A stretch of 59,663 nucleotides of DNA from an uncultured bacterium. GTDB lineage: Bacteria; Fidelibacterota; Marinisomatia; Marinisomatales; UBA1611. Of the stretch, positions 11,141 to 27,346 are shown one piece after another. The notes under the pieces are model-generated. The model made no database searches and was not told the origin of the DNA. It saw nothing but the letters and a program-made list of their open reading frames with translations. The position numbers and the translations under genes were made by a program. The stretch is from NCBI GenBank assembly GCA_965660855.1, contig CBFIBM010000012.1, forward strand, positions 1 through 59,663, in the 5' to 3' direction. Position 1 is the stretch's first letter. Each line of letters begins with the position of its first letter.

Positions 11141-11845
11141 ATGTTAATTGATATAATAAATATTATTAAAGCTCTCCCTAGTCAGCACCTTATTTTTGGT
11201 GTAATTAGTACTGTACTATGCATTGCTGTCGCGTGGGTCTATAGTAAAAGTTCTGAAAAGTTAAAGAAAATTATAATTCAAGCTACCTCTTATCTTGTTA
11301 TATTTAATGAGATTGCATTTCAAATAAATATGCTGTTTTATGGTATATGGTCATACAGAACTTCATTACCTCTAGAAATGTGTTATATATCTGCTCTATT
11401 GATACCATTTTACAGTAAAAATAATACTTCAAGAATATTGAAAACTTGGTTTTTCTTTGCAGGTTTTTGTGGGTCACTCTTTGCATTCATTAATACAAAC
11501 TTATCTGAGTTCGAACAAATATACATATCCATACATTATTTTTTTGCTCATGGATTGGTTATATTTATCGCATTTAGTATTATTGTAGATGGCTATAGAC
11601 CTACCTGGGGAGACTATTTTGAGGTAATTAAATGGACTACAGTATTAGTCATAAGTATAGTAATAATTAATGTTGTACTTAAAAGTAACTATATGTTTAC
11701 ATTTGAAAAACCTGATGGAGTTAATTTTACACTATTAATGCCAGACTGGCCTTATTATTTTTTGATTATGTTATTTATTGGTTTATCATCATATACTGTA
11801 ATGATGTGTTTTAAATTTATTCCATTAAATAAAAATCGCTCATAA
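11141..11845 (+). CDS. YwaF/TIGR02206 family integral membrane protein
   Basis: LPLEMC, YFFAHG, NYMF, WPYY motifs; multiple TM segments. Confidence 0.75.
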   Translation: MLIDIINIIKALPSQHLIFGVISTVLCIAVAWVYSKSSEKLKKIIIQATSYLVIFNEIAFQINMLFYGIWSYRTSLPLEMCYISALLIPFYSKNNTSRILKTWFFFAGFCGSLFAFINTNLSEFEQIYISIHYFFAHGLVIFIAFSIIVDGYRPTWGDYFEVIKWTTVLVISIVIINVVLKSNYMFTFEKPDGVNFTLLMPDWPYYFLIMLFIGLSSYTVMMCFKFIPLNKNRS

Positions 11846-11853
11846 CGCTCATA
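11834..11853 (+). promoter_or_regulatory. Tandem direct-repeat operator candidate, box 1 (AATCGCTCATAACGCTCATA), upstream of TTGCAT-N17-TAACTT
   Basis: Near-identical to boxes at 20641, 22200 and 26375; precedes the DUF2878-cfa operon; overlaps the stop codon of the upstream gene. Confidence 0.8.
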
Positions 11854-11891
11854 TTTATTGCATCTTAAATATTTACTAAATAACTTTACAA

Positions 11892-12410
11892 GTGAGTAAA
11901 TATAAAGTATTTAATATAGTAGGTTTCCAAATTAGTTGGTGGATTTGTGTTCTTTCAGCAACTACTGAAATGGCATATTTTGGCCCCCTTGTTATGGCTA
12001 TATTCATTATAATACATTTCTGGAAATTTACTGATAGTATTAATGAGTTAAAATTGATAGCTATTTTTGGAGTTCTAGGAACTATAGTAGACACTATGTT
12101 CATGCATTTAGGGCTTCTTAGTTATGATGGATTATATTCAAAAGATATTTTAATTGCACCCTTATGGATTACAGCTATGTGGTGCGGCTTTTCAGCAACA
12201 ATTAATCACTCTATGCATTGGTTAAATAATAAATGGATGCTTTCATTTGTTTTAGGATTGGTGTTTGGTCCACTTTCTTATATAACCGGTGAAAAATTTG
12301 GTGCGATTAGCTTTACTGTAGATATAAAAATTATAATAGTCGTTCTCGCAATTGTCTGGGGATTAAGTATTCCTTCTATATATTGGGTAAATAATAAATT
12401 GGATAATTAA
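11892..12410 (+). CDS. DUF2878 family membrane protein
   Basis: NIVGFQISWWICV, PLWITAMW, FGPLSY..G motifs; typical cfa-operon neighbour. Confidence 0.8.
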   Translation: MSKYKVFNIVGFQISWWICVLSATTEMAYFGPLVMAIFIIIHFWKFTDSINELKLIAIFGVLGTIVDTMFMHLGLLSYDGLYSKDILIAPLWITAMWCGFSATINHSMHWLNNKWMLSFVLGLVFGPLSYITGEKFGAISFTVDIKIIIVVLAIVWGLSIPSIYWVNNKLDN

Positions 12411-12414
12411 TAAA

Positions 12415-13116
12415 ATGAGATGCATTATTAAATTAATTTTCTCTTCTATTATATTAACTGCGAATATTTATCCTGAAGTATTATATAATAGCTCCTATGA
12501 TTTATTAAAATTATTAATTGAAAAAACAGGGTGGGTAAATGATGGTGAGGAAAATGGATTCTCACTAAGTAAGAAGCTGATCAAAAACAAAGATCTTTAT
12601 GCTTTAAGAGTACAAAAGAAAGTTGGATTCTCACCTGATATAATTCAAGAAATCTTAATAGACGTGAATAATTATGATCAGTTTTTATCAAAATCTAATA
12701 ATATTAAATCGTATGAATTGAACAGGTCTAATAAATGGGTTGATGCATATCAATTTATCGAAAATAATATTCCATTCTTAGATAATCGTGAATACTGCTT
12801 CAGGATATCTAAAGAAGGTTTAGATGATAGTGATAAAATATCTCTAGTGCATTGGTATTTACTTGAGAAAAATTATTATGATACGTCACATTTAGTAAAG
12901 AATAATAAGTCAATTTATTTAAATTACGGGGCTGGTTTATGGCTGGCAGAAGAACAAATTGACCAGTCTGTTATGATATCATATATTATTTATATTGACC
13001 CTGGTGGATCTATTCCAGACTTTTTAATAGATAAAGCTAATAGAGTTAGCCTTGTTAATATATTAGAAGATACTATAATAGAAGCAAATAGAAGGATAAA
13101 TTTAAAAAATAGTTAG
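12415..13116 (+). CDS. START/SRPBCC lipid-binding domain protein (exported)
   Basis: PFLDNREY and YIDPGGSIPDFL START-like motifs; N-terminal signal-like segment. Confidence 0.65.
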   Translation: MRCIIKLIFSSIILTANIYPEVLYNSSYDLLKLLIEKTGWVNDGEENGFSLSKKLIKNKDLYALRVQKKVGFSPDIIQEILIDVNNYDQFLSKSNNIKSYELNRSNKWVDAYQFIENNIPFLDNREYCFRISKEGLDDSDKISLVHWYLLEKNYYDTSHLVKNNKSIYLNYGAGLWLAEEQIDQSVMISYIIYIDPGGSIPDFLIDKANRVSLVNILEDTIIEANRRINLKNS

Positions 13117-13664
13117 TGATGATAAAGCTACTACATTCCTCTTTTTTATATTTGTTGGTAACCTTAATCAGTTGCAATGAACCTTATAAAGATTTTAAAA
13201 AGGATGAAATGGAAACTGTAGAATATGTAGACATTGATAAGTTCATGGGTGATTGGTATGTCATAGCAAACATCCCAACATTTATTGAAAAAGAAGCTTC
13301 AAATGCAATTGAATCCTACAAATTAGATAAAGAAGGAAATATTGCAACAACTTTTACCTTTTTTAAAAAGTCCTCGCCCGACAAAATTGTTAAATACACA
13401 CCTAAAGGATTTATTGTAAATAAAAAAACAAATGCTGAATGGAGAATGCAATTTTTATGGCCCTTTAAGGCTAAGTTTTTGATTATTGATTTAGATGAAA
13501 ATTATGAAACCACTGTGATTGGCCATCCAAGCAGAAACTATGTCTGGATCATGGCTAGGAATCCAATAATTGAAGATTCTAAATATAGATCTATTATTGA
13601 TAATCTTTTATTAATTGGTTATGATATAAGTAAAATCAAGAAAGTACCCCAGAAGTGGAATTAA
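13116..13664 (+). CDS. blc: Bacterial lipocalin (lipoprotein)
   Basis: LISC lipobox; VDIDKFMGDWYVIA, FLWPF, YVWIMAR motifs. Confidence 0.9.
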   Translation: MMIKLLHSSFLYLLVTLISCNEPYKDFKKDEMETVEYVDIDKFMGDWYVIANIPTFIEKEASNAIESYKLDKEGNIATTFTFFKKSSPDKIVKYTPKGFIVNKKTNAEWRMQFLWPFKAKFLIIDLDENYETTVIGHPSRNYVWIMARNPIIEDSKYRSIIDNLLLIGYDISKIKKVPQKWN

Positions 13665-13692
13665 ATACTTTAATTTGATTTATGGCTTCAAT

Positions 13693-14943
13693 ATGAAAAT
13701 TGCAATTATTGGTTCGGGTATATCAGGTCTCACAAGTGCATACCTTTTAAGCAGAAAAAATGATGTTACCGTATTTGAGAAAAATAATTATATAGGTGGT
13801 CACACGCACACACATGAGTTAGAATTTAATGGTCATACTCATTTTGTTGATTCAGGTTTTATTGTGTATAACGAACGAACATATCCAAATTTCATAAAAA
13901 TATTGAATCAGTTAAATGTTGATCGCCAGATTACTAGGATGGGGTTTAGTGTAAAATCAAAAGATAATAATTTAGAGTATGCGGGTCACTCTCTTAATGG
14001 TTTATTTGCACAAAGATCAAATTTATTGAATCCTTCTTATTTGAATATGCTATTGAGTATGTTAAGGTTCAATAAAGAATCGCGAAACGATTTGAATTCT
14101 ATGAAAACAAGTCTGACCCTTGGAGAATATTTAAAAAAAAATCATTATCCAGATATTTTTATCCAAAATTTTATCATACCGATTGGTGCAGCAGTTTGGT
14201 CTACTGTTCCTAACCTTATGATGGAAATGCCTGCCATATTTTTTATAAGATTCTTTGAAAATCATGGGATGCTTCAAATAATAGATCGCCCAAAATGGTG
14301 GGTAATAAAAAATGGTTCCAAATCTTATGTTGAAAAAATTATAAGTAACTTTAGAGATAAAATACGTTTATCAAATCCAGTCAAAAATGTAAAAAGAATT
14401 GATGGAAAAATTATAATTGCTTCAGGGAAAGATAACATTATAGAGGAAGAGTTTGATTCAGTGGTTTTTGCCACTCATAGTAACCAATCTTTAAAGCTTC
14501 TTGAAAAACCTTCAGCTCTTGAAAAAGAGATTTTAGGTGCTATACCATATCAAAATAATAGAGCATTGCTACATTATGATGAGTCAATTTTACCTAAAAG
14601 AAAAAATGCATGGTCTAGTTGGAATTATAATCTGGACCGTGATGAAGATAAACCTGTATCACTGACTTACAACATGAATATATTACAAGGTTTAGATTCT
14701 ACTAGAACATATTGCGTATCCTTAAACAGTGACGATCTGATTGATAAATCAAAAGTAATAAAGAAGTTAGATTATGAGCACCCTCTTTTTACACTTGAAG
14801 GCGTGGAAGCGCAAAAAAGAAAACACCAGATTAGTGGTGTAAACAATACTTATTATTGTGGTGCATATTGGAGAAATGGATTCCACGAAGATGGAGTAGT
14901 GAGTGCCCTAGATGTCTGTAAAAGTTTCGGAGAGTATTTATGA
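13693..14943 (+). CDS. FAD-dependent oxidoreductase, amine-oxidase family (UfaD-like fatty-acyl desaturase)
   Basis: MKIAIIGSGISGL Rossmann motif (ATG 13693 preferred over TTG 13675); VDSGFIVYNERTYPNF; CGAYWRNGFHEDG; adjacent to DUF1365 and cfa. Confidence 0.85.
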   Translation: MKIAIIGSGISGLTSAYLLSRKNDVTVFEKNNYIGGHTHTHELEFNGHTHFVDSGFIVYNERTYPNFIKILNQLNVDRQITRMGFSVKSKDNNLEYAGHSLNGLFAQRSNLLNPSYLNMLLSMLRFNKESRNDLNSMKTSLTLGEYLKKNHYPDIFIQNFIIPIGAAVWSTVPNLMMEMPAIFFIRFFENHGMLQIIDRPKWWVIKNGSKSYVEKIISNFRDKIRLSNPVKNVKRIDGKIIIASGKDNIIEEEFDSVVFATHSNQSLKLLEKPSALEKEILGAIPYQNNRALLHYDESILPKRKNAWSSWNYNLDRDEDKPVSLTYNMNILQGLDSTRTYCVSLNSDDLIDKSKVIKKLDYEHPLFTLEGVEAQKRKHQISGVNNTYYCGAYWRNGFHEDGVVSALDVCKSFGEYL

Positions 14944-15719
14944 GTTTATCAATCAAAAGTTATATTTATTCTGGGAAAATTCAGCACAGAAGGTACTCTC
15001 CTTTTAAACATTTTTTTACGTATCCGTTATTCTTTGCATATATAGATTTAGATACGATTAGCTCCACCCTTAAAAAGTCATGGTTTTGGAATATTGATAA
15101 ACCTGCAGTTATTTCATTTAATAGAAAAGACTATCATGGTGATAATCATGCAGAATTATCATCGTCAGTTCGGGAGACTATTTTTAAGAAAACTGGTAAT
15201 ATGCCAAGTGGTCCAATAAGACTTCTAACCCACCTGAGATATTTTGGATATTGTTTTAATCCTGTAAGTTTCTATTATTGCTTTGATAAAGAAGATACTG
15301 ATTTAGAGTATATTTTGGCGGAGGTTACAAATACACCTTGGAAAGAGAGATTTGCATATGTAATTGATAAAAAATCAGAAAAAGATAAAATTGCTTTTGA
15401 TATTGATTTAAAAAAAGAATTACACGTTAGTCCTTTCTGGGGAATGGATCATGATTATAGATGGGTATTCTCTAATCCCGAAGAAAAGCTATTTGTTAAT
15501 ATGAAAAATTATAGAAACGGATCTAAGGTTTTTGATGCTACTTTAAGCTTAGATCGAAGTTCTTTTTCAAAAACTTCACTTTTAAAGCAAATATCTAGAT
15601 TTCCTTTCATCACTATAGTTGTAGTCTTTAGAATCCATTTGCATGCGGCGATATTGTGGCTTAGAAGAGCCCCTTTTTTTGTGCACCCTAGTAAGTTAAA
15701 TCATGAAGAGAAGGATTAA
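14940..15719 (+). CDS. DUF1365 family protein (UfaO-like)
   Basis: HRRY.P..H.F.Y, FNPVSFYYC, AEVTNTPW, LHVSPF motifs. Confidence 0.9.
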   Translation: MSLSIKSYIYSGKIQHRRYSPFKHFFTYPLFFAYIDLDTISSTLKKSWFWNIDKPAVISFNRKDYHGDNHAELSSSVRETIFKKTGNMPSGPIRLLTHLRYFGYCFNPVSFYYCFDKEDTDLEYILAEVTNTPWKERFAYVIDKKSEKDKIAFDIDLKKELHVSPFWGMDHDYRWVFSNPEEKLFVNMKNYRNGSKVFDATLSLDRSSFSKTSLLKQISRFPFITIVVVFRIHLHAAILWLRRAPFFVHPSKLNHEEKD

Positions 15720-15721
15720 TA

Positions 15722-16993
15722 ATGAGTGATGATTATCAACTAAAAGAACTTGCAGAGTCAGTTAAGAATCAAAAAAAATCTACATTTTTATCTTCAATAT
15801 TTAAAAAAGCCCTCTTTGATAAGTTCAAATTAATCGATGTAGGGTTCATTGAACTGAAAGATGGGTCAAATACGTTTATATTTGGTGATAAATCCGACAG
15901 CCTGAAAACATCAATTACGATTCATTCTCAAGAATTTTATGTTCTCCTTGGTAGTGGTGGTACGATGGGTGTCTCTGAAGCGTATATGGCTGGATATTGG
16001 AGTTCTTCAGATCTTGTAGCTTTATTACGAATTGTTCTTAAAAATAGATCTGTATTAGATTCTCTGGATTCTGGAATAGCAAAATTGATCCAACCAGTGA
16101 ATAAACAGATTCATAAAAGTAGACAAAATACTTTAAGAGGTAGTAAGAGCAATATTTTAGCACACTACGACCTGAGTAATGAATTTTACAGTTTGTGGCT
16201 AGATTCAACGATGACATATTCATGTGGATATTTTAATAATAAGGATTCTAGTTTGAAAGATGCTTCAATTGAAAAAATTGACAGAATTTGTAGGAAATTA
16301 AAACTTTCAAAAGAAGACTCACTGCTTGAAATTGGAACTGGTTGGGGGAGTTTCTCTGCTCATGCAGCAGAGAATTATGGTTGCAGTATTGTTACTACAA
16401 CTATTTCAGATGCCCAATACAGATATGCTGATAAACTATTTAAAGAAAAGGACCTTTCATCTAAAATCCAATTGTTGAATATGGATTACAGAAAATTAGA
16501 TGGAGAATATGACAAAATTGTCTCGATTGAAATGATTGAAGCTGTAGGCTATCAATATATCCCCGCATATTTACAAAAGATTGATTCACTACTTAAATCT
16601 AATGGTAAAGCTTTAATACAAGGTATAACATATAATGATCAAAGCTTCGAGAACTATAAGAATTCTGTTGATTTTATTAAGAAATATATATTCCCAGGTT
16701 CATGTCTTATTTCCCTATCTCAAGTTTTAGATGTAATTAAAATTCAGACAAGTATGGCACTAGTAGATATGGAAGATATAACCATACATTATGCAGAAAC
16801 TTTAAAATGTTGGAGAGAAAATTTTTTTAAAGTACTTCCTGATATAAAAAATTTAGGTTTTTCAGATTCTTTTATAAGAATGTGGGAATTTTATTTTGTA
16901 TTTTGCGAGGCTGGGTTTTTAGAGAGGAATATAGGAGATGTTCAATTAGTTTTTGCAAAAGAAGATGCGAGAGATATAAGGATTAATTACTAA
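15722..16993 (+). CDS. cfa: Cyclopropane-fatty-acyl-phospholipid synthase family SAM methyltransferase (UfaM/CfaS-like)
   Basis: NILAHYDLSNEFY, MTYSC, LEIGTGWG, SIEMIEAVG, YIFPG, HYAETL motifs. Confidence 0.9.
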   Translation: MSDDYQLKELAESVKNQKKSTFLSSIFKKALFDKFKLIDVGFIELKDGSNTFIFGDKSDSLKTSITIHSQEFYVLLGSGGTMGVSEAYMAGYWSSSDLVALLRIVLKNRSVLDSLDSGIAKLIQPVNKQIHKSRQNTLRGSKSNILAHYDLSNEFYSLWLDSTMTYSCGYFNNKDSSLKDASIEKIDRICRKLKLSKEDSLLEIGTGWGSFSAHAAENYGCSIVTTTISDAQYRYADKLFKEKDLSSKIQLLNMDYRKLDGEYDKIVSIEMIEAVGYQYIPAYLQKIDSLLKSNGKALIQGITYNDQSFENYKNSVDFIKKYIFPGSCLISLSQVLDVIKIQTSMALVDMEDITIHYAETLKCWRENFFKVLPDIKNLGFSDSFIRMWEFYFVFCEAGFLERNIGDVQLVFAKEDARDIRINY

Positions 16994-16995
16994 AG

Positions 16996-18030
16996 ATGAT
17001 AAAATCATTAATACAATTAGCTGAAAAAGGTATTCTACCTGATTTTTTAATTAGATTTGGAATAAGAAAATTATCAAAAGTACGTTTAGATAGAGCCAAA
17101 TACTCAACAAAAGAAGAAGTAGCCAAATGGCATCAAGATTGGGTTTCAATTCTCAAAAAAAGTCCAGTTGCTCTTGTTCCTGAAAAAGCAAATGAACAAC
17201 ATTATGAAGTTCCGCCATTATTTTTTGAATATTGCTTAGGGCCTAACCTTAAGTATAGTTCTGGTTATTGGCCGGATTATGTAAATACCTTAGAAGAATC
17301 AGAAGTTGCAATGCTTGAGTTGTCATGCGAAAGAGCAAAAATACAAGACGGAAATATGATTCTAGAATTAGGCTGTGGTTGGGGCTCCCTAACTTGTTTT
17401 ATGGCTAAAAAATACCCTAAGAGTCAGATTACCGCTGTAAGTAACTCCAAGGATCAAAAAAAATATATATTAAAGAGATGTGCTGAAAATCAAATTGAAA
17501 ATGTTAATGTTATTACTGCTGATATGAATGATTTTGAAATTAAGGAAAAGTATGACAACGTTATTTCTATCGAGATGTTTGAGCATATGCGTAATTATAA
17601 AAAATTATTATCAAAGATTTCAAATTTTCTTAATAAAAAAGGATCACTTTTCATCCATATTTTCACACATGAATTTCTTGCTTATCCTTTTGAAAATGAA
17701 GGTGATGGCGATTGGATGGCAAGAGAATTTTTTAGTGGTGGGATGATGCCCTCTCATAATTTATTACTATATTTCCAAGATGATTTAAAAATTGATCATG
17801 TTTGGAGGTTGTCAGGGAAGCATTATGAAAAAACTTCATTAGCTTGGTTAAAAGAAATGGATAAGAATAAGAAAAATATAATCGAAATTTTTAAAGAAAC
17901 TTATGGTGAAAAAAATGCTAAAATATGGTTCCAGAGATGGCGTATTTTCTATTTGTCTTGTGAACAACTTTTTGGTTACAACAATGGAACTGAATGGGGA
18001 GTTTCACATTATCGGTTTGTGAAAAATTAA
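16996..18030 (+). CDS. Second CFA-related SAM methyltransferase (coclaurine N-methyltransferase-like subfamily)
   Basis: ANEQHYEVP, LKYS, LELGCGWGS, SIEMFEHMRN, WFQRWR motifs. Confidence 0.85.
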   Translation: MIKSLIQLAEKGILPDFLIRFGIRKLSKVRLDRAKYSTKEEVAKWHQDWVSILKKSPVALVPEKANEQHYEVPPLFFEYCLGPNLKYSSGYWPDYVNTLEESEVAMLELSCERAKIQDGNMILELGCGWGSLTCFMAKKYPKSQITAVSNSKDQKKYILKRCAENQIENVNVITADMNDFEIKEKYDNVISIEMFEHMRNYKKLLSKISNFLNKKGSLFIHIFTHEFLAYPFENEGDGDWMAREFFSGGMMPSHNLLLYFQDDLKIDHVWRLSGKHYEKTSLAWLKEMDKNKKNIIEIFKETYGEKNAKIWFQRWRIFYLSCEQLFGYNNGTEWGVSHYRFVKN

Positions 18031-18045
18031 ACTACTAAAATTTTT

Positions 18046-18762
18046 ATGTACATAGCTCTATTTATTTTCTTTCATTGGTACTTTTCTTTGTTTTTTCAAA
18101 CATTCTTTCTCCATAGATATGCTTCGCATAACATGTTTAAAATGAGTCCTTTATGGGAAAAAATATTTTTTTCTCTAACATTTATTTTCCAAGGTTCTTC
18201 ATTTTTGAATCCTGCCGCATATGCCATAATGCACAGACGCCATCACTCACACACTGATACTGAAAAAGATCCTCATTCACCGTTATATATTACTAATATA
18301 ATATCTTTTAACCTTGCTACGGCCCTAAGGTATAGAGAATTAGTTGTAGATTTAAAGAAAGGGAATATCTCTGAGAAAAATTTACCTAGATGGAAGTTTA
18401 TTGAAAATTTAGGTGAATCTTTGATCGTAAGAGCCGTTTTTATATTATTATATTTTTTATTTTATTTGGAGTTCGCAAACTCAAAATGGTATTTTATTTT
18501 TTTGCCAATAAATATTTTTATGGGACCAATTCATGGATTTATAGTTAATTGGTTTGGACATAAAACTGGATATAGAAACTTTAATGACTTGAATGATAAC
18601 TCTAAAAATTCTTTACCATTAGATTTTTTAATGATGGGTGAGTTATACCAAAATAATCATCATAAAAAGCCAAATGATTTAAATTTTGCTAAAAATTGGT
18701 TTGAGTTTGATTTTGGTTATATAATATCAAATATTTTAAGAAAAATAAAGGTGATATATTGA
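18046..18762 (+). CDS. Acyl-CoA/acyl-lipid desaturase (delta-9-like)
   Basis: His boxes HRYASH, HRRHH, QNNHH; DPHSP. Confidence 0.9.
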   Translation: MYIALFIFFHWYFSLFFQTFFLHRYASHNMFKMSPLWEKIFFSLTFIFQGSSFLNPAAYAIMHRRHHSHTDTEKDPHSPLYITNIISFNLATALRYRELVVDLKKGNISEKNLPRWKFIENLGESLIVRAVFILLYFLFYLEFANSKWYFIFLPINIFMGPIHGFIVNWFGHKTGYRNFNDLNDNSKNSLPLDFLMMGELYQNNHHKKPNDLNFAKNWFEFDFGYIISNILRKIKVIY

Positions 18763-19661
18763 AAATAAAAAACCATAATTTTAAAGATTATTCCTCTATT
18801 CTATTTATTTTTATCTTTTCCTGTCTGCTTTCATATGGGATAGGGATAGGGTCTCAGACATTATCTTATTTTGGGCTTCCTGTAGTTTTTATAACTATGT
18901 TATTAAGCTATACCTTACATTGGATCGCGTTTATACCTGCATATTTATTTAAAACTGAAAAATTTTATGATATTTTAGGTACAATTGCATATTTATCCGT
19001 TACTGGTTTAGCAATTTATTTTACGCTTTATTTATCCGAAGAAAAATTACAATCACGATCAATTTTTGTTGCCTCTTTAGTGATTATTTGGGCATTGCGT
19101 TTGGGTATTTTTCTATTGATACGTGTATTAAAAAATGGTGAAGATCGAAGGTTTAGAGAGCCAATGCAATCATTCTCGAAATTTTTACTTTGGTGGAGTA
19201 TGTCTGCATTTTGGGTGTTTTTAACTACTTTAAATGCAATAACAATGTTAACAAATAACTTTGATTCAATTTTCGATATTTTTTTTATAATTGGATTAAT
19301 ATTTTGGTTTGTCGGGTTTAGTATTGAACTGATCTCGGATGAACAGAAAAGAAAATTTAAATTGAATCCTAAAAATAATGAAAATTTTATTTCTAACGGA
19401 CTGTGGAGTTATTCAAGACATCCAAATTATTTTGGTGAAATTATACTTTGGATAGGTATTTCAATTATGTCCTTACCAACTTTAGTGGGATTACAATTCT
19501 TAAGTTTAATTAGTCCAGTTTTTATTTATCTTCTTTTAACAAGAATTAGCGGTGTGAACTTGCTTGAAGAAAGAGCTGATAGTAAATGGGGAAATCAAAA
19601 AGACTACCAAGAGTATAAAAGAAAAACACCAATATTAATTCCTTTTAAAAATACTTTATAA
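18759..19661 (+). CDS. DUF1295 (steroid 5-alpha-reductase-like) membrane protein
   Basis: EKFYD, WALRLG, EDRRF, GLWSYSRHPNYFGE motifs. Confidence 0.88.
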   Translation: MKIKNHNFKDYSSILFIFIFSCLLSYGIGIGSQTLSYFGLPVVFITMLLSYTLHWIAFIPAYLFKTEKFYDILGTIAYLSVTGLAIYFTLYLSEEKLQSRSIFVASLVIIWALRLGIFLLIRVLKNGEDRRFREPMQSFSKFLLWWSMSAFWVFLTTLNAITMLTNNFDSIFDIFFIIGLIFWFVGFSIELISDEQKRKFKLNPKNNENFISNGLWSYSRHPNYFGEIILWIGISIMSLPTLVGLQFLSLISPVFIYLLLTRISGVNLLEERADSKWGNQKDYQEYKRKTPILIPFKNTL

Positions 19662-20249
19662 TTGTTTAAGTCTATTCCTAGTAAACCTTTTTGGATAATC
19701 ATAGTCATTTTTCTTAGTTGGAGAGATACGTTAATGGCAATAGAGACACCTGAGCATAAATTATTAAGAAAAAATCAAAAAATTGAAATAAGAGAATATA
19801 ATTCTTCTGTAATAGCAAGGACTTTTGTATATGATAATTACAGAGAAGCTTCTAGCACGGGTTTTAGAAGAATTGCAAATTTTATTTTTGGAGGTAATAA
19901 TAAAAATCAAAGTATAGAAATGACTGCACCTGTAATTATTTCAAAAAATATAAAAAAAAATGGACATGAAATATTTTTTTTTATGCCAAAAAAATATGAA
20001 TTAGATGAATTACCAAAACCAAACTTGGAGAGTGTTAAACTAGAAGAAATAATCATAGGAAAAGTTGCGGCTATAAGTTTTGGGGGCTGGGCTACAGAAA
20101 AAAACGTAAGTTTTTATACAGAAAAGTTAAAACAATATTTAAAATTAAATAATTATGAAACGATTGGAAATTTCATGGTTGCGCAATATAATTCACCTTG
20201 GGCAATTCCTCCGTTTAGAAAAAATGAAATCCTTGTTAAAATTAATTAA
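19662..20249 (+). CDS. SOUL heme-binding protein (alternative start ATG 19734)
   Basis: IETP, EIREY, GFRRIANFIFGGN, IEMTAPV, RKNEI motifs. Confidence 0.9.
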   Translation: MFKSIPSKPFWIIIVIFLSWRDTLMAIETPEHKLLRKNQKIEIREYNSSVIARTFVYDNYREASSTGFRRIANFIFGGNNKNQSIEMTAPVIISKNIKKNGHEIFFFMPKKYELDELPKPNLESVKLEEIIIGKVAAISFGGWATEKNVSFYTEKLKQYLKLNNYETIGNFMVAQYNSPWAIPPFRKNEILVKIN

Positions 20250-20295
20250 TCTCAATTAAACTTGGACATTAAACAATCCAATAATAGGAATAGGT

Positions 20296-20631
20296 ATGAA
20301 TTTTGAATCTATAATTGATGCTTTGAAAATAATTGCTGCTGTTGCTGTTTTTTTTGTTTGGGTCGTTAGATACGCGAATATAAAAAAAGAGTTTGAAAAA
20401 TTTGGCTTCCCTAGCTGGTTTAGGGATATGATTGGTATACTTAAAATCTCTTTTACTGTTATGCTTCAATCGTTGAACGAACAAATAGTACTTCTAGGTG
20501 CTTTTGGAATTGTTTTTTTGATGAGTGGAGCAATATTAACTCATATTAAAGTAAAAAATCCTGTGAAAGAAATGCTTCCAGCTATTGCAATGATTTCAAT
20601 TGGATTGATTATTCTATACTCCTCGCTTTAG
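20296..20631 (+). CDS. DoxX-like small membrane protein
   Basis: EFEKFGFPSWF..IG.LK, MSGAILTHIKVKNP....PA motifs. Confidence 0.75.
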   Translation: MNFESIIDALKIIAAVAVFFVWVVRYANIKKEFEKFGFPSWFRDMIGILKISFTVMLQSLNEQIVLLGAFGIVFLMSGAILTHIKVKNPVKEMLPAIAMISIGLIILYSSL

Positions 20632-20640
20632 TTCTTTGAA

Positions 20641-20660
20641 AATCGCTCATAACGCTTATA
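20641..20660 (+). promoter_or_regulatory. Tandem direct-repeat operator candidate, box 2 (AATCGCTCATAACGCTTATA), upstream of TTGTTA-N17-TATGTT
   Basis: 19/20 identical to box 1; intergenic, 29 nt upstream of the -10-like hexamer at 20690. Confidence 0.8.
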
Positions 20661-20719
20661 AAATATTTGTTAAATTTATCGTTAATACTTATGTTTTGAC
20701 ATAAGATTAGGTATAAAAT

Positions 20720-21193
20720 ATGACATTCCAACAAAAAGTATTTTTAAATAATATTCAGCCCTTAGATGTAATTAGGTCTTTTCATGATCACAATTTTGTA
20801 GAATTTCTTATTTCAGGCCAGCCCGTTAAAATAAATACTTGGAAAGGTATAGATAATAACAAAACCGCTTCTTTCTCATTTTGGTTTTTTGGATGGAGAA
20901 CAATGAATGTTGTCCACGAAAATTATCAGGTAAGTCGTGAAAAATTACATTTTGAAGATCACGGAACAGAGTTACCATTTGGTTTACTAGAATGGAAGCA
21001 TCAACACATTGTAAAACCATATAAAAATGGATCTATTATTGTAGACAATGTTACTATGGATAAATCTACAATTAAGAAAAAATATCTAATCTACCCAATC
21101 ATGATATTTCCAATTTTTATTAGAAGAATCACATATAAAATTTGGTTTTATTTTTTAGAAGGTAAAAAGTGGAGTTCATTTAAATCATTATGA
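20720..21193 (+). CDS. SRPBCC-like (cyclase/ligand-binding) protein
   Basis: F.D.G..LPFGL..W.H.H......GS.I.D.V pattern. Confidence 0.65.
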   Translation: MTFQQKVFLNNIQPLDVIRSFHDHNFVEFLISGQPVKINTWKGIDNNKTASFSFWFFGWRTMNVVHENYQVSREKLHFEDHGTELPFGLLEWKHQHIVKPYKNGSIIVDNVTMDKSTIKKKYLIYPIMIFPIFIRRITYKIWFYFLEGKKWSSFKSL

Positions 21194-21681
21194 AATTATT
21201 TTTTAAAACATCTGTTTGTTTCTTATTTATTTTAAGTATTTTATTTCCTAAATCAAAATCATCGTACTCAAGTATTCATAATACATGGAGATCAAAGAGT
21301 GATTCAAGATACAAAGTTTGGTTTCAGGATTGGTCTAGTTATACTAGATTATTTTTAACAATCAATGAAGATACAATTTCTGTTCAACCAAATAAATATG
21401 CCGCTGTAAATAGAAAGAAACCCTATTTATTCCCCAAGCCATATAAAAAAGTTCTTAAAAGACAACTTATTGGAAATATTGAATGGAATGACAAACCGTT
21501 ATGGAATGATGGGCATGTAAACACCTTTAAGTATATAGTAGATCGTTCAAATCCAAAGTCATCTTTGCCTATTGTTTTCGAGGGTTTATCTGTGAAGGAT
21601 AATGGTGTTTTACGACTTGAACTTGTTTCTGGTCCAGACTTAAAATATCATATGGAATTGATTCCGACGAGTGTTGAGTAA
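21190..21681 (+). CDS. Hypothetical exported protein
   Basis: ATGA overlap with the upstream gene; N-terminal hydrophobic segment; no family recognised. Confidence 0.6.
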   Translation: MKLFFKTSVCFLFILSILFPKSKSSYSSIHNTWRSKSDSRYKVWFQDWSSYTRLFLTINEDTISVQPNKYAAVNRKKPYLFPKPYKKVLKRQLIGNIEWNDKPLWNDGHVNTFKYIVDRSNPKSSLPIVFEGLSVKDNGVLRLELVSGPDLKYHMELIPTSVE

Positions 21682-21696
21682 TTTTAGACTCTAAGT

Positions 21697-22218
21697 GTGA
21701 ATAAAAAAAAAACGTGTTTTAAAAGTTCCATATTATCTGTAAATCAGGAGGTTAGTAAAAGTTTTCCTCAAAAAAAGATAATAACGATTGATGCCCCGAA
21801 TTGGGTAAATATAATTCCTTTCACACCATCTAATGAGATAGTTTTTATAAAACAACATCGGTATGGAGTGAATAATAAAACTTTAGAAATTCCTGGTGGA
21901 ATGGTAGATAAGGGTGAAAGTTCATATGAATCTGCGACTAGAGAACTACTAGAAGAAACGGGCTTTCAATCAACAAGAGTATTTAAATTAGGGAAGATAT
22001 CTCCAAACCCAGCTTTGTTTTCAAACTATGTCACTAGTTACGTTGCTTATGGAGTAAAAAAATTAGATTATTACTGTGAAGAAGAAAATATAACGACTAA
22101 GTTAATTCACTTGTCAAAAGTAAATAATTTAATAAGGTCAGGAAAAATAGACCACGCACTAGTTGTCGCAGCCTTCTTTCTCTTCAATATTAGAAATAAA
22201 AACGCTCAAAACGCTTAA
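21697..22218 (+). CDS. NUDIX hydrolase (ADP-ribose pyrophosphatase-like)
   Basis: Nudix box PGGMVDKGESSYESATRELLEETG; SPNPA. Confidence 0.9.
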   Translation: MNKKKTCFKSSILSVNQEVSKSFPQKKIITIDAPNWVNIIPFTPSNEIVFIKQHRYGVNNKTLEIPGGMVDKGESSYESATRELLEETGFQSTRVFKLGKISPNPALFSNYVTSYVAYGVKKLDYYCEEENITTKLIHLSKVNNLIRSGKIDHALVVAAFFLFNIRNKNAQNA

Positions 22219-22219
22219 A
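22200..22219 (+). promoter_or_regulatory. Tandem direct-repeat operator candidate, box 3 (AAACGCTCAAAACGCTTAAA), upstream of TTGACT-N18-TATATT
   Basis: Same CGCTYA 9-bp repeat, encoded within the last codons of the NUDIX gene; 29 nt upstream of TATATT at 22249. Confidence 0.78.
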
Positions 22220-22276
22220 AAAGCTTGACTTCTATTTTAACTTTTATCTATATTTAATTAAGTAATAGGAGTTTTT

Positions 22277-22558
22277 ATGAGTATTCTACAAGCAGTATCA
22301 CAAGGTGCAGACCTTAAACATGCAAATGAAAAGAGAGAAGTAAAAAACAATTTTGATGCCCGAAAAGCAGATCAAGATTTAAGAGCTTGTCCTTCCTGCA
22401 GAGCGGTGTGGGAGATTATGGTTTTTAATCAGACTGTTGACTATAAATATTACCATAATTTTCCACGATATGGTAAGAAGAAGGGTGTCTGCCCAAGTTG
22501 CGCAATAAGAACAAAAAATAAATATTATCATAATAAAGAGGTATTGGATCCCTCATGA
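22277..22558 (+). CDS. Hypothetical protein with two CPSC motifs (possible Zn ribbon)
   Basis: Strong AGGAG RBS; ACPSCR...VCPSCA. Confidence 0.7.
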   Translation: MSILQAVSQGADLKHANEKREVKNNFDARKADQDLRACPSCRAVWEIMVFNQTVDYKYYHNFPRYGKKKGVCPSCAIRTKNKYYHNKEVLDPS

Positions 22559-22857
22559 GTTTATCATTTATCGATCATATTGCTGTCGAGTCAAACGATA
22601 TAAGTAAATCAGTAGAATGGTATTCTCAAAAATTTGATTGTGAAATCAAACATCAAGATGATACCTGGGCCCTTTTAGGGTTTGATAATATTTCACTTGC
22701 TCTTGTAACGCCCGGAGAACATCCGCCTCACATCGCTATTCATGATGATAAAATTATTGGTTCAAATGAAAGGAAAATACATAGAGACGGAATTGGGTAT
22801 ATCTATAAAGAAGATCCGGATACCAATGTTGTAGAATTGATTGACACAAAAACTTGA
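22555..22857 (+). CDS. VOC/glyoxalase family protein
   Basis: IDHIAV..DISKSVEWY, HIAI, YKEDPDTNVVELI motifs. Confidence 0.85.
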   Translation: MSLSFIDHIAVESNDISKSVEWYSQKFDCEIKHQDDTWALLGFDNISLALVTPGEHPPHIAIHDDKIIGSNERKIHRDGIGYIYKEDPDTNVVELIDTKT

Positions 22858-22880
22858 TTATGGTTAGCGTTCAGATTATA

Positions 22881-23036
22881 ATGGAAAAAAATTACTGTAT
22901 ACTTTCCGCATTTGATGAAGATGCGCATGAGCTTGCCGGAAAAGTACAAGACTTACTAGGACAAGGATGGATAATATCAGGTGGTATTGCATCCTTAAAT
23001 AGTAAATTATATCAAACTATGGTCAAAGGATTGTGA
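22881..23036 (+). CDS. Small DUF1737-like protein (ORF track starts it at 22854)
   Basis: Y.IL......L...V...L..GW...GG.......YQ.MVK pattern. Confidence 0.55.
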   Translation: MEKNYCILSAFDEDAHELAGKVQDLLGQGWIISGGIASLNSKLYQTMVKGL

Positions 23037-23734
23037 TGAGTGTTTTGATTATTGGTGCCGCAGGTGGCATCGGAACCGTACTGGTTGACGACTTAGTAGA
23101 CCTTTCTTTCAATCTCCTCCTTGGGTATAGGTCTAATAAGCCCGTATCCAAATCTGCTGAGTCTCAACCGGTTGATGGTGAAAATTTTCAATCTGTACAT
23201 GATTTTGTGCAATATGGTTTAGATAAATTTGGTAAGATTGATGGTATAGTCAATTTAGCTGGAAACTTGGTTTTAAAACCAGCTCATCGATGTAGTGAGG
23301 ATGAATTTGATCAGACTATAGGTAAAAATTTAAAGTCTTCATTTGCTGTAGTAAAAGCAGTAGGTTCCCTCTTAGAAAACTGTTCTGTAGTTTTGTTGTC
23401 CACTGCAGCTGCAGGTATAGGTCTTGCTAACCATGAGTTGATTTCATCTGCGAAATCTGGGGTAGAAGGTCTTGTTAAATCAGCTTCAAAAACTTACGCA
23501 CGAAAAAACATAAGATTTAATAGCGTTGCACCTGGATTAATCTCGACTCCTCTTTCCTCCAAAATCATTAGTAACCCGATTGCATTAAAAGCTAGTGAAA
23601 AAATGCATGCACTTGGTAGAATAGGAGAGCCAAAAGATATTTCTAATATGATACAATTTTTGATAAGTCCCCAAAATAATTGGATAACAGGGCAAAATTT
23701 TGTTATAGACGGTGGTTTATCATCAACAAAATAA
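23033..23734 (+). CDS. Short-chain dehydrogenase/reductase
   Basis: GAAGGIG, NLAG, VAPGL, ITGQ...DGG motifs; catalytic YxxxK is atypical (ISSAK). Confidence 0.88.
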   Translation: MMSVLIIGAAGGIGTVLVDDLVDLSFNLLLGYRSNKPVSKSAESQPVDGENFQSVHDFVQYGLDKFGKIDGIVNLAGNLVLKPAHRCSEDEFDQTIGKNLKSSFAVVKAVGSLLENCSVVLLSTAAAGIGLANHELISSAKSGVEGLVKSASKTYARKNIRFNSVAPGLISTPLSSKIISNPIALKASEKMHALGRIGEPKDISNMIQFLISPQNNWITGQNFVIDGGLSSTK

Positions 23735-23762
23735 TAACTAATCTAAAATAATAGGAAAAGTA

Positions 23763-24089
23763 ATGAAAAAAGTAGCTTTAAGAAAGAATAGATTTAACAA
23801 AAAAGAATTCTCCGAAACTAGCTGGACCGAAAAGTCAAAAAATCTAGGTGAATATATTTTTAGAAGAATATCCTTAGATCAATCAGATAAAGGATTAAAA
23901 GAAATTAGACCTCGCCACATTTTGAGTGGTTTGATTATCAGCAGCAAAGAAATCCAGCAATATGTATGTGATTACTTGGATTTATTAGAAAGTCAGAAGA
24001 TTGATACCGTTGATATTACAGGAATAGAGAATTTTAAAGATTTTAATTTAGATAACTACTTGGATAGTATAACTATTCCGAAATCATAA
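23763..24089 (+). CDS. Hypothetical protein
   Basis: AGGA RBS, co-oriented, fills the gap; no family recognised. Confidence 0.6.
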   Translation: MKKVALRKNRFNKKEFSETSWTEKSKNLGEYIFRRISLDQSDKGLKEIRPRHILSGLIISSKEIQQYVCDYLDLLESQKIDTVDITGIENFKDFNLDNYLDSITIPKS

Positions 24090-24111
24090 ATATCTATATT
24101 GAATTTTAAAA

Positions 24112-24693
24112 ATGAATTTTAAAAGGTTTATTATGATAGCAAGTATTACTACAATATTTACAGGATTCTTTTCATTAATATTTTCAAAAAGTACTCTAGC
24201 TGCTAAATCTGGAGAGGTATCAAATAGCTCGATCTATGAGATGAAGCTTAAGTTAAATAATGGAGATTTGATTTCCCTAAGTAAATTCAAAGGGAAAAAA
24301 TTGATGTTTGTAAATGTGGCTTCTAGATGTGGATTTACTTCTCAGTACAAAAAGCTTCAACAACTTTATGAGAAAAAAAATGATGTTCTAGAAATAATTG
24401 CAATTCCGTGCAATGATTTTGGTCGTCAAGAGCCTGGAAGTGCAGAAGATATTAAAAGGTTCTGTGAATCAAACTATAAAGTAACATTTACCATAGCAGA
24501 TAAACAAAATATAAAATCAAGGACTAGAAGTGAATTGTATAATTGGTTATCTGATCCGGCTTTAAATGGGTGGAATGATCAACTACCTTCTTGGAATTTT
24601 TGTAAATATCTCATAGACGAAAATGGTGAATTAACGCATTTTTTTAAAAGTAATGTTGATCCGGTTGGCGAAAAAATATTTCCTTTGATTTAA
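24112..24693 (+). CDS. gpx: Glutathione peroxidase (Cys type), N-terminal signal/anchor
   Basis: VNVASRCGFTSQY, PCNDFGRQEPG, WNFCKYLID motifs. Confidence 0.92.
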   Translation: MNFKRFIMIASITTIFTGFFSLIFSKSTLAAKSGEVSNSSIYEMKLKLNNGDLISLSKFKGKKLMFVNVASRCGFTSQYKKLQQLYEKKNDVLEIIAIPCNDFGRQEPGSAEDIKRFCESNYKVTFTIADKQNIKSRTRSELYNWLSDPALNGWNDQLPSWNFCKYLIDENGELTHFFKSNVDPVGEKIFPLI

Positions 24694-24712
24694 TCTCCCA
24701 TACTGTAATTGA

Positions 24713-24880
24713 TTGAAAAAAAAATTCTTACCAAAAAAGATTTGTCCGATATGTAATTTTAGTTTTTCTTGGCGTAAAAAGTGGGTTAGGAATTGGGAAG
24801 ATGTAAAATATTGTAGCCAAAAGTGCAGAATTAATAGAGTTAAGATCATCAAAAATGAAAATCATCTTAATTTATCCTAA
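24713..24880 (+). CDS. DUF2256 small Cys-rich protein (absent from the ORF track)
   Basis: Hand translation from [42 protein letters not shown]...; typical neighbour of photolyase genes. Confidence 0.85.
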
Positions 24881-26339
24881 TCAATTATATAGCAATCACC
24901 CGGCTCTTAGAAAAGATCAAAAAATAGTTATAGTTGAGGATCCTCTTTTTTTTGGGGATCAACAATATCCATTAAATTTTCATAAGAAAAAACTGCTACT
25001 TCACTTCGCTTCAATCAAATCTTATAAAGAAGAATTAAAGAATAGGGGATATGATGTAGAAATATATCCTCATGAAAAATTAAGAGGTAAGAATTATAAT
25101 ATTTCAATGTTAAAATCAATGAATATATCGGAAATATCTCTAGCAGATGTTGTTGATTACACATTAGAAAAAAGGCTTGTAAATGCTGCAAAGGCTTTAA
25201 ATATTAAAATTAAGTGGTTTGATACACCAGGTTTTATACTCACTAGCGAAGAAGTCAATAGAGAGTTTAAAAATAAAAAAAAGCATCTAATGAATACCTT
25301 TTATATAAATCAGCGTAAGAAATTAAATATACTATTGGATGAAAATTATAATCCCATTGGAGGAAAATGGAGTTTTGATTCAGAAAATAGGAAAAAATTA
25401 CCAAAAAAAACTATAATACCATTAATTAAAAAAATAGAATTTGATAAAAAAACATTAAACTATTCTACAGATAAGATAAATAAATATTTTAATAAAAACC
25501 TAGGTTCAATAGAAGGGTTTAACTTCCCGGTGACGAGGTTGCAAGCACGGGAATCTTTCAAAGATTTTTTATATCACAGATTGGAATTATTTGGGACTTA
25601 CGAAGATGCCATTTCAAAAGATAACAACTTTTTATTCCATGGAGTTATAACTCCATACCTTAATATAGGTTTAATGACGCCAAAAGAAGTTATAAACGAC
25701 GTCATGGATTTTGCAGAGCAAAATCATGTACCTATTAATTCCTTAGAAGGTTTTATCCGCCAAGTTATTGGATGGAGAGAGTTTATTCGTGGCATATACA
25801 TTATGGATGGGGTAAAGCAAAGAAATAGTAATTTTTGGAATTTTAAAAAAGAAGTACCCGAGTCATTTTATAATGCAAAGACAGGTCTAGTTCCATTAGA
25901 TAATGCAATAAATAGATGCCTAGAAACTGGATACACTCATCATATAGAGAGGTTAATGATATTAGGTAATATTATGGTACTTTTGGAGATTAATCCTAAA
26001 TCTGTTTATAATTGGTTCATGGAATTTTTCATTGATTCCTATGATTGGGTAATGGTGCCTAATATTTACGGAATGAGTCAATTTTCTGATGGAGGTTTGA
26101 TGTCCACTAAACCATATATCAGTGGGAGTAATTACATCTTAAAAATGAGTGATTATAAAAAAGAAGAGTGGACTGAAACTTGGGATGCTCTTTATTGGAA
26201 CTTTATAAACAAGAATAGGTCCTTCTTTAAAAAGAATCCTAGAATGAGTATGATGGTTTCAATGTACGATAAGCAGTTGGAAAAGAAAAAAGTAAAAGAT
26301 TATAAAATTGTACAAAAATATTTCAAAACTATTTTTTAA
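24855..26339 (+). CDS. Bacterial cryptochrome/(6-4) photolyase, PhrB/CryB-related, lacking FeS cysteines
   Basis: [55 protein letters not shown] motifs. Confidence 0.9.
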
Positions 26340-26374
26340 TAAAAACAAGTGATAGACTTAAGTATTTTTATAAG

Positions 26375-26394
26375 TAAAGCTCATAACGCTCATT
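26375..26394 (+). promoter_or_regulatory. Tandem direct-repeat operator candidate, box 4 (TAAAGCTCATAACGCTCATT), upstream of the regulator gene
   Basis: GCTCATAACGCTCAT core identical to box 1; 29 nt upstream of TATATT at 26424. Confidence 0.8.
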
Positions 26395-26434
26395 TTCTAT
26401 TTTAATATAATATGATTATGTTGTATATTTTAAT

Positions 26435-27334
26435 ATGAGATATTTAAGTTCAAATGATGTTGCAGAAATTTTAGGCGTAAATATTTCTACCCTTAAAAGA
26501 TGGACAGATAACAAAACGATACAATGTACGAAAACGCCTGGTGGGCATAGAAAGTTTACTATGAAACATGTTAGAGAGTTTTATAAAACTAATAAAAAGT
26601 CAACAAAGAATCTTGGTTTAGGTCTCGAAAAATTAAAACACAAACGTATCTTTGATTTAATCAATAAAGAAAAGTACAAAGATTTAGCAGAGATTTTAGC
26701 TGACTCTAGCATTGAGTCAGATGAATTAAGTGTAAATACAATTATTAATGGATTGTATATGAAAGGGGCATCCGTTCAAATGATTTGTGATGAAGTCATT
26801 GAACCTGGTAGTATGATAGTTGAAAATGCTCTTAGAAAAAATTATCTTAGTCACGCTGAAGCATTTATTAGCAGAAAAATGATTACCCGTAGTGTTGAAA
26901 TTTTAAATATCAATAAACCAAATGATTCATCAAACTCTAAGAATGCGCTTTGTGTCAATTTCGAAGATAATTTACCAGATTTAGGTGTTGTAATGTCTGA
27001 AGCTGTCTTAAGACATATTGGTTATAATGTATTTAATACTGGCTCTCATGCTGAACTTGGAAATCTTGAAACTGTAATAGAGAAAAAAGATATAAATCTT
27101 ATATTATTTTATTTGTGTGATATGCAATGTTGCATGGCTACTGTTCAAAAAAATATGAAAAAAACTGAAGGTCAAGTGGAAAATATCATCTCCATTGTAA
27201 ATAAATTTGATGATATCCAAGTAATCTTTGGTGGGTCGGGCCTTCATTTGATGCCAAATGTCCAAAATAAGATAGGCCTTACTTTCAACACATTTTCTGA
27301 TTTAAAAAACGTATTTACCAATTCTAATTCATAA
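26435..27334 (+). CDS. CarH/LitR-like transcriptional regulator: BldC/Xis-type MerR HTH + degenerate cobalamin-binding fold
   Basis: DVAEILGVNISTLKRW...KTPGGHRKF HTH; helical bundle (ICDEVIEP...) and Rossmann part (DLG...LRHIGYNVFNTG, VIFGG). Confidence 0.85.
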   Translation: MRYLSSNDVAEILGVNISTLKRWTDNKTIQCTKTPGGHRKFTMKHVREFYKTNKKSTKNLGLGLEKLKHKRIFDLINKEKYKDLAEILADSSIESDELSVNTIINGLYMKGASVQMICDEVIEPGSMIVENALRKNYLSHAEAFISRKMITRSVEILNINKPNDSSNSKNALCVNFEDNLPDLGVVMSEAVLRHIGYNVFNTGSHAELGNLETVIEKKDINLILFYLCDMQCCMATVQKNMKKTEGQVENIISIVNKFDDIQVIFGGSGLHLMPNVQNKIGLTFNTFSDLKNVFTNSNS

Positions 27335-27346
27335 TTAAACTAAATT

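Follow-up and report, generated by a model that had tools for sequence, protein, structure and literature searches.

CarH and its kin in the LitR/CarH family are the closest described counterparts of a regulator encoded at 26435–27334 (+) in a 59,663-nucleotide stretch of DNA (the window) from contig CBFIBM010000012.1 of an uncultured Marinisomatales bacterium (assembly GCA_965660855.1). Here we analyze that regulator together with a short direct-repeat element, the box, which stands ahead of its gene and of three further gene blocks in the window. CarH, a repressor and adenosylcobalamin (AdoCbl) photoreceptor whose AdoCbl-dependent tetramer comes apart in light, is defined by a Wx9EH motif together with an ExHx2G... 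motif (PMC8156234), CtMerR is an AdoCbl photoreceptor of the CarH type (PMC11796333), and the characterised members of the LitR/CarH family are repressors (PMC9758184, PMC8156234); these and all other articles cited below are drawn on for selected passages.

The regulator shares with CarH and other class I LitR proteins (Thermus thermophilus CarH, 5C8D/5C8E/5C8F; CtMerR, 8JBS) the succession of a winged helix-turn-helix (wHTH), a four-helix bundle and a B12-type Rossmann domain. As with CarH, the operators are non-palindromic direct repeats, the regulator's own gene and photoprotection genes are the predicted targets, and a head-to-tail dimer is predicted. Unlike CarH, whose operators consist of three or four 11-bp nAnnTnnACAn units overlapping the promoter (PMC8156234), the boxes described here comprise two 9-bp units that end 6–8 nt upstream of the −35 element, and the protein lacks both the Wx9EH motif and the cobalt-ligand histidine while carrying an 8-residue CxxxCC insertion.

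Two B12-independent systems offer further parallels. CarA of Myxococcus xanthus is a CarH-like repressor that lacks Wx9EH and dimerises through its B12-like domain; its operator, whose placement we count as a likeness, starts well upstream (−70) and reaches the −35, and repression is relieved by the light-induced partner CarS (PMC8156234). CarA differs from our regulator in keeping a canonical B12-binding motif, in being able to bind B12, and in its operator of about 55 bp, which takes two dimers (PMC8156234). No CarS-like protein was identified in the analysis of this genome. Class II LitR proteins of Pseudomonas (PplR1, PmlR2) are also repressors, with light sensed by a separate protein, and their regulon is very similar in content: photolyase, cryptochrome-like CryB, a fatty-acid-modifying enzyme and proteins of unknown function (PMC9758184). 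Unlike our regulator they keep the four-helix bundle only, and their operator, TGTACA-N12-TGTACA, overlaps the −35 or lies downstream of the start (PMC9758184). Their partner is a short LOV protein (PMC9758184); none was seen here, and no search was aimed at one. Taken in the wide sense (classes I–V, PMC9758184), the LitR/CarH family has a LitR-type N-terminal HTH, a diverged C-terminal domain and control of light-inducible genes, and it may take in our regulator, whose HTH and fold fit and whose putative regulon is photoprotective in content; kinship with classes IV or V is possible.

Outside this family, the protomer of Streptomyces BldC reads a 9-bp direct repeat head-to-tail, with a varying number of repeats (PMC5859096), and the boxes here have two or sometimes three units. 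The analogy with BldC drawn in an earlier note on this DNA gains from the fact that the best NCBIfam match of the regulator's HTH is HTH_BldC. At 35 bits against a cut-off of 77, and with two domains beyond the DNA-binding one, the regulator nevertheless falls outside the BldC family, since BldC is a DNA-binding domain alone (68 aa), with the repeat AATTxxxx(C). SCHIC and other B12-like sensor domains (AppA, 4hh0; AerR, 7te2), in which a B12-type domain is reused for another signal, show a resemblance at the level of fold, and our regulator has no BLUF domain. Finally, classical MerR activators bind a palindrome within a 19–20-bp −35/−10 spacer as coiled-coil dimers, in contrast to the direct repeat upstream of the −35, the 17–18 nt spacers and the four-helix bundle, in place of a long coiled coil, of the model described here.

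Direct-repeat boxes of 9-bp period at four predicted promoters

The earlier note had placed four tandem repeats of 9-bp period on the + strand of the window, and all four 20-mers stand where it put them: box 1 at 11834–11853, box 2 at 20641–20660, box 3 at 22200–22219 and box 4 at 26375–26394. The repeating unit is wAACGCTCA, and each box holds two of them, with the core GCTCATAACGCTCA in box 1 (11838–11851) and again in box 4 (26379–26392), GCTCATAACGCTTA in box 2 (20645–20658) and GCTCAAAACGCTTA in box 3 (22204–22217). Allowing one mismatch, the pattern GCTYANAACGCTYA (GCTYAnAACGCTYA) matches the window four times, at 11838, 20645, 22204 and 26379, all on the + strand; shuffled versions of the window gave a mean of 0.08 matches, and none of 100 shuffles reached four. 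Box 1 overlaps the final 8 nt of the open reading frame (ORF) at 11141–11845 and box 3 the final 15 nt of the ORF at 21697–22218, the stop codon lying inside the box in both cases. Box 4, the predicted operator of the regulator's own gene, ends 42 nt 5′ of its ATG.

That the boxes are confined to an island at 11.8–28.7 kb, as the earlier note held, is true of the window and not of the genome. Across the assembly (2,091,952 bp in 81 contigs, 31% G+C; the window is contig C12), six exact matches were found against 0.15 expected from base composition (zero-order model), the two beyond the window being C10:3209 (+) and C6:23429 (−). None of the six lies deep inside a gene, and two overlap just the last codons of an ORF. 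Five of the six point toward photolyase or stress genes 42–118 nt away. The C10 box stands 52 nt before the gene of a photolyase FAD-domain protein, which is followed in its operon by an unknown gene, an MFS transporter, an Fpg glycosylase and a PNPOx-like protein, and the C6 box is flanked by an epimerase gene on one side and, on the other, by a DUF4397 gene with a type IX secretion system (T9SS) sorting domain. A scan of the genome at up to two mismatches returned 91 matches, mostly within genes, and no further convincing site besides a near-box on contig C14. This near-box, GCTCATAACGATCT at G000:C14:134–147, sits at the start of the contig with the usual AAAAC leader and has a hairpin and a T-run downstream. 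(In these labels G000 is this genome, other G and L numbers denote compared genomes and loci, and C denotes a contig.)

Reading by eye against the sigma-70 consensus, we predict a promoter on the + strand behind each box. Promoter 1 (11858–11886) would consist of TTGCAT at 11858 and TAACTT at 11881, promoter 2 (20667–20695) of TTGTTA at 20667 and TATGTT at 20690, promoter 3 (22225–22254) of TTGACT at 22225 and TATATT at 22249, and promoter 4 (26401–26429) of TTTAAT at 26401 and TATATT at 26424. The spacers are 17 nt, or 18 nt at promoter 3, and the distance from the end of the box to the −35-like hexamer is 6–8 nt at all four. The TAnnnT hexamers that the earlier note had pointed out at 11881, 20690, 22249 and 26424 are thus all present and are read as −10 elements, with the boxes just upstream of the −35. 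An assignment of the hexamers as −33/−7 elements of the Bacteroidota type was dropped in favour of TTGACA-N17-TATAAT with AGGAG ribosome sites, to which the promoters conform. Inspection by eye for further degenerate 9-bp units (a third or fourth) over the −35 gave no convincing match. The predicted −10 of the regulator ends 5 nt 5′ of the ATG, a spacing conserved in its clade, and its mRNA is therefore probably leaderless. Contigs of four RNA-library runs cover parts of all four blocks. One of these contigs begins at 22260, a weak hint beside the start site predicted near 22261, and contigs of three runs begin at 26444–26450, again a weak hint, the ATG of the regulator being at 26435. Two contigs bridge box 2.

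A CarH-like predicted fold without the CarH-defining motifs

The regulator is a protein of 299 amino acids with a BldC/MerR-type wHTH (residues 3–53), a four-helix bundle (about 67–159) and a B12-type Rossmann domain (about 170–295). Pfam HTH_17 and MerR_1 match residues 3–53 (MerR_1 at 30 bits, cut-off 21.6), the B12-binding model matches weakly (18.2 bits, cut-off 32.1), and the NCBIfam CarH equivalog NF052513 reaches 21.9 bits, below its cut-off of 400. The best sequence match in the PDB is CtMerR (8jbs, E 7e-13), and the HTH also matches RacA and, weakly, BldC (6amk, 6ama). An AlphaFold2 model built from a 48-row alignment, with a predicted local distance difference test score (pLDDT) of 89.6, shows the wHTH, the helical bundle and the Rossmann domain. 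The top Foldseek matches of this model are full-length T. thermophilus CarH (5c8f, 5c8e, 5c8d) and 8jbs (TM 0.83 by target length), with AerR (7te2) and the SCHIC domain of AppA (4hh0) lower down.

The two signatures of AdoCbl binding are absent. At the Wx9EH positions the regulator has L133 and A143-F144, and the position of the cobalt-ligand histidine of ExHx2G is P181 (DNLPDLG), as found in alignments to 8jbs and 1y80 and in the 48-row alignment. In the latter, all nine B12-less sequences have leucine at the tryptophan position and eight of the nine lack the histidine of EH (P0130 keeps EH), and most of the other 39 keep both W and EH. A further feature common to the clade is an insertion of eight residues behind strand 3, with the motif C228-x3-C232-C233. 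Going by flavodoxin-like topology, not by measured distances, this insertion and C173 would sit where the lower face of the cofactor would be. The view in the earlier note of the regulator as a type apart from CarH/LitR does not find support in that form: fold and layout are CarH-like in sequence and model, although the CarH-defining motifs are lost.

A homodimer prediction scored 0.72, against 0.00 for the best of three controls. The mark that it passed is reached by 20 of 30 proteins solved as one-chain pairs and by 1 of 23 solved as single chains; the runs, made with a custom alignment and no cofactor, agree in at least 68% of contacts, with a partner pLDDT of at least 77. In the predicted interface, bundle helix 139–163 packs against Rossmann residues 180–182 and 198–218. 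We take the pass as a likeness to CarH, not as proof, as CarH dimers have been solved and the predictor may have reproduced those structures.

Association of the box with the regulator gene

To the earlier note the gene at 26435 encoded the protein that binds the boxes and regulates itself, and it is by far the best candidate. We compared the own promoters of 80 loci from species genomes, of which 35 belong to the B12-less clade (L/xF-Y/P + CxxQCC) and 45 keep W/EH/H; the Wx9EH and His signatures are missing in 35/35 of the former and present in 45/45 of the latter. When the 130 nt ahead of the regulator gene were scanned with up to two mismatches, all 35 B12-less loci showed a box, 41–43 nt before the start in 31 of them, and in the other four the script had chosen another start codon. 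Among the canonical W/EH/H loci the box was found in 21 of the 44 with upstream sequence, and five more carry the variant GTGCAwATCGCTCA. By record titles, the boxed canonical loci belong to Marinimicrobia, Calditrichia, Fidelibacterota and others. The usual form of the canonical own promoter is box-6 nt-TTGACA-N17-TATATT, and in B12-type homologues within the same family, which are 27–29% identical overall, the box stands 37–43 nt before the ATG. The HTH (VNxSTxKRW...GGHRKF) is conserved in both groups.

In five of the B12-type loci (L129, L136, L143, L155 and L158) the upstream flank of the own-promoter box is TTGTCAAGA, reading TTGACA on the opposite strand. A single box may thus serve two divergent promoters there, and a second box follows a TATATT hexamer nearby.

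Among closer relatives, we examined 61 genomes: G000 and 60 others, 36 of the same family and 24 of other families in the order. The pattern occurs 56 times in this set, compared with 11 times for a reversed control pattern, and at least one match is present in 22/36 genomes of the family and in 3/24 outside it. Close orthologues of the regulator (57–78% identity) were detected in 13 of the 61 genomes, all of the same family, and all 13 have the box, as the co-occurrence proposed in the earlier note would have it. Seven relatives share the synteny of the 17-kb island; for six of them the locus retrieved spans all of it or lacks only its start, and in these the boxes recur at the same junctions. 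The island of G027 is spread over more than one contig, and its DUF2878 gene showed no strict box in front. Most boxes of the relatives stand 40–90 nt before the start codon of their target genes, which encode DUF2878, DoxX, the 157/163-aa proteins, the 93-aa protein, photolyase FAD-domain proteins, an NmrA-like protein and the regulator, as well as a DUF2237-photolyase pair (divergent from rhodopsin in G027). Two units per box are the rule; boxes of three were seen in relatives at some of the DoxX promoters, and at G027:C39. Widening the set to 16 high-quality genomes of the family gave nothing new.

Mainly because box and regulator gene co-locate across such deep divergence, we regard the boxes as very probably the operator of the regulator at 26435–27334, its own promoter included. 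As far as sequence comparison can tell, this is a real and conserved regulon, with an operator type that appears undescribed and a CarH-like sensor that is B12-less.

Repression is the favoured mode of action

On balance the regulator is more likely than not a repressor, of its own gene among others, that is relieved by light or photo-oxidative stress; repression as such, apart from the signal, we hold with the same or slightly greater confidence. Two wHTH domains of an oligomer would read the two head-to-tail 9-bp units in the manner of BldC. From a site at −58 to −43, the bound protein might keep RNA polymerase from making its upstream contacts, or the −35 might be covered by the remainder of the oligomer. 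Light or photo-oxidative stress would then lift repression and turn on the photolyases, the cryptochrome-like protein, the glutathione peroxidase and the fatty-acid-modifying block.

The placement of the box in other lineages argues for this mode. In two genera an inverted box stands 5–6 nt past the −10-like hexamer of the DUF4397 gene, the arrangements being TTGCAT-17-TTAATT-5-box in this genome (G000:C6, 23395–23471, L002) and TTGACA-17-TTATAC-4-box in G027:C43 (L057, 1590–1730). By eye, TATATT-5 nt-box was also seen at six sites adjoining B12-type homologues. In L094 and L108, which belong to the B12-less clade, just 19 nt separate the box from the ATG of the 93-aa orthologue, and there is room for a promoter only upstream of the box. 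Given this placement, a single mode across lineages is simpler if it is repression. The near-consensus own promoters of B12-type homologues and the precedent of the family point the same way. At the DUF4397 site of G000, an ORF of 50 aa lies 56 nt beyond the box, on the side toward which the box points.

Several points weigh against our reading as a whole. The boxes of the window end 6–8 nt upstream of the −35 with no overlap, and a fixed orientation and distance of this kind are the hallmark of an activator in contact with RNA polymerase. The sigma-70 consensus by which the promoters were read is not established for this phylum, and two of the four −35 hexamers (TTGTTA, TTTAAT) are weak. Kinship among the relatives inflates the support that their counts lend. 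Nine genomes of the family, 55–92% complete, have a strict box with no regulator detected; one of them is explained: G027 has seven boxes, and its DPRP gene, normally the neighbour just ahead of the regulator, is cut off by a contig end. The RNA-library contigs show presence, not starts, levels or co-expression.

The strongest alternative keeps the operator and the regulator and makes the latter an activator, as the earlier note had suggested: from a site at about −58 to −43 it would bring in RNA polymerase when light or oxidative stress changes its state and would repress only where the box overlaps the start site, as at the DUF4397 gene. BldC itself reportedly works as both activator and repressor, which we count on this side. 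The orientation of the box is fixed and its 6–8 nt distance to the −35 recurs at many promoters and across phyla, with TTG beginning 6–8 nt past the box in 46 of 113 contexts other than own promoters, and both promoter 2 and the promoter of the regulator gene have a weak −35. BldC is, moreover, called a pleiotropic regulator of development (PMC5859096). Set against this, the box of the 93-aa gene is at −50 here and in the 5′ leader in L094 and L108, so that activation would require opposite logic in sister lineages, and many own promoters of B12-type loci are a near-consensus TTGACA-N17-TATATT that needs no activator. Precedent in the family is for repression, with no CarH/LitR activator described in the passages used here. 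As other lineages place the box on or past the predicted −10, or within the 5′ leader, of regulon genes, we consider activation possible but a good deal less likely than the repression favoured above.

Much less probable is that the box belongs to a different protein, perhaps a further transcription factor or an alternative sigma, with the CarH-like gene as just one of its targets. This explanation draws on the nine boxed genomes of the family in which the regulator was not detected and on the indirect nature of our case for binding. Those genomes are, on the other side, incomplete metagenome-assembled genomes, and in G027 the expected site is just past the contig end. The box also precedes the regulator gene in 35/35 B12-less and 21/44 B12-type loci that span several phyla at about 25–30% protein identity, yet with a conserved HTH, and a 9-bp direct repeat suits a BldC-type HTH. 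That the repeats are a chance product or a non-regulatory family, for example remnants of a mobile element, has nothing but the low complexity of this AT-rich genome to commend it and is negligible in view of the shuffles, the 11 control matches against 56, and a placement relative to genes and promoter hexamers that is conserved across genera and phyla.

Signal input of the B12-less clade

The content of the regulon and the family of the regulator argue for light or photo-oxidative stress as the likely signal. AdoCbl is presumably what canonical relatives sharing this operator rely on. By its sequence the B12-less clade, in contrast, cannot sense light as CarH does, because both AdoCbl signatures are lost. 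The signal might be perceived by the conserved Cys cluster in what was the B12 pocket, by a different cofactor, or by a partner protein. We tentatively suggest, as a possibility that we would not put first, that a descendant of CarH swapped B12 for a Cys cluster (C173, C228-x3-C232-C233) and senses photo-oxidative stress directly, by a thiol switch, a metal, an Fe-S cluster or a tetrapyrrole, having kept the ancestral 9-bp direct-repeat operator. The idea that the B12 site was lost since the cell uses no B12 found no support, as two other proteins of the genome have B12-binding domains above the Pfam cut-off.

These findings outline a concrete regulatory circuit for defence against light and oxidative stress in Marinimicrobia (SAR406), an abundant uncultured group of the ocean. 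Epipelagic clades of this group are known to have acquired proteorhodopsin, photolyases and peroxide-stress genes, with no regulator named in the passages used (PMC6143742), and no regulator described for these surface clades turned up. At the level of listings and passages, the literature searched described neither a regulator of the CarH/LitR type nor an operator of one for Marinimicrobia or Calditrichota. A text search with the operator sequence, which did not extend to supplements, found the 14-mer in one unrelated plant-virus paper and, among the papers listed for the 8-mer, only primers or unrelated uses. For CarH-like proteins, two 9-bp units in the style of BldC would be an operator type distinct from the 11-bp Thermus model and common to B12-type homologues of several phyla. 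The clade stands out for having kept the CarH scaffold while losing both B12 signatures. If the reading of the Cys cluster were true, it would be a new mode of sensing in the CarH/LitR family, joined to an operator type that a multi-phylum CarH subfamily shares, in one of the most abundant uncultured groups of the ocean. A compact, B12-independent switch controlled by the box could also interest makers of genetic tools.

Genes behind the boxes

All four blocks lie on the + strand. Block 1 (11892–20631), behind box 1, has 11 genes, is syntenic in seven relatives and encodes DUF2878, an unknown protein of 233 aa, a lipocalin, an amine oxidase, DUF1365, two methyltransferases resembling cyclopropane-fatty-acid (CFA) synthase, a fatty-acid desaturase, DUF1295, SOUL and DoxX proteins. 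Block 2 (20720–22218) encodes unknown proteins of 157 and 163 aa and a NUDIX hydrolase. Of the syntenic islands compared, this one and that of the same-genus relative alone contain the NUDIX gene (21697–22218). Block 3 (22277–26339) has seven genes, for a 93-aa CxxC...CxxC protein, a glyoxalase-like protein, a 60-aa protein, an SDR, a 108-aa protein, a glutathione peroxidase and a DPRP-type cryptochrome/photolyase-related protein; adjacency of the DPRP and regulator genes is not universal among the loci compared. The 93-aa protein (22277–22558), whose gene is the first past box 3, has two CPSC motifs and resembles a Zn ribbon. It gave no match in Pfam or NCBIfam and is the most conserved protein of the island, with 75–92% identity compared with about 45–80% for its neighbours.

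Block 4 (26435–28681) consists of the regulator gene and that of a class II cyclobutane pyrimidine dimer (CPD) photolyase (27347–28681; TIGR00591, 574 bits), which starts 13 nt past the regulator's stop codon, leaving a 12-nt gap. The pair is adjacent in 15 of the 18 B12-less regulator loci compared. We considered the co-transcribed photolyase as the light sensor and judged this unlikely given its class II CPD assignment.

Photolyase homologues of 364–396 aa under box control occur in L001 (G000:C10, 3275–4456), L029 and L057 (7343–8533), and their matches to photolyase models cover the FAD-binding half alone, beginning near model position 210; they represent a short photolyase-like protein that is conserved. 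The rhodopsin gene of G000 lies at C4:3739–4377, with no strict box nearby. In L057 (G027:C43, 6038–8533), a rhodopsin gene is divergent from the boxed DUF2237-photolyase pair, and a near-box, GTTCATAACGCTCA at 5926, lies beyond the 3′ end of that rhodopsin gene and points into it.

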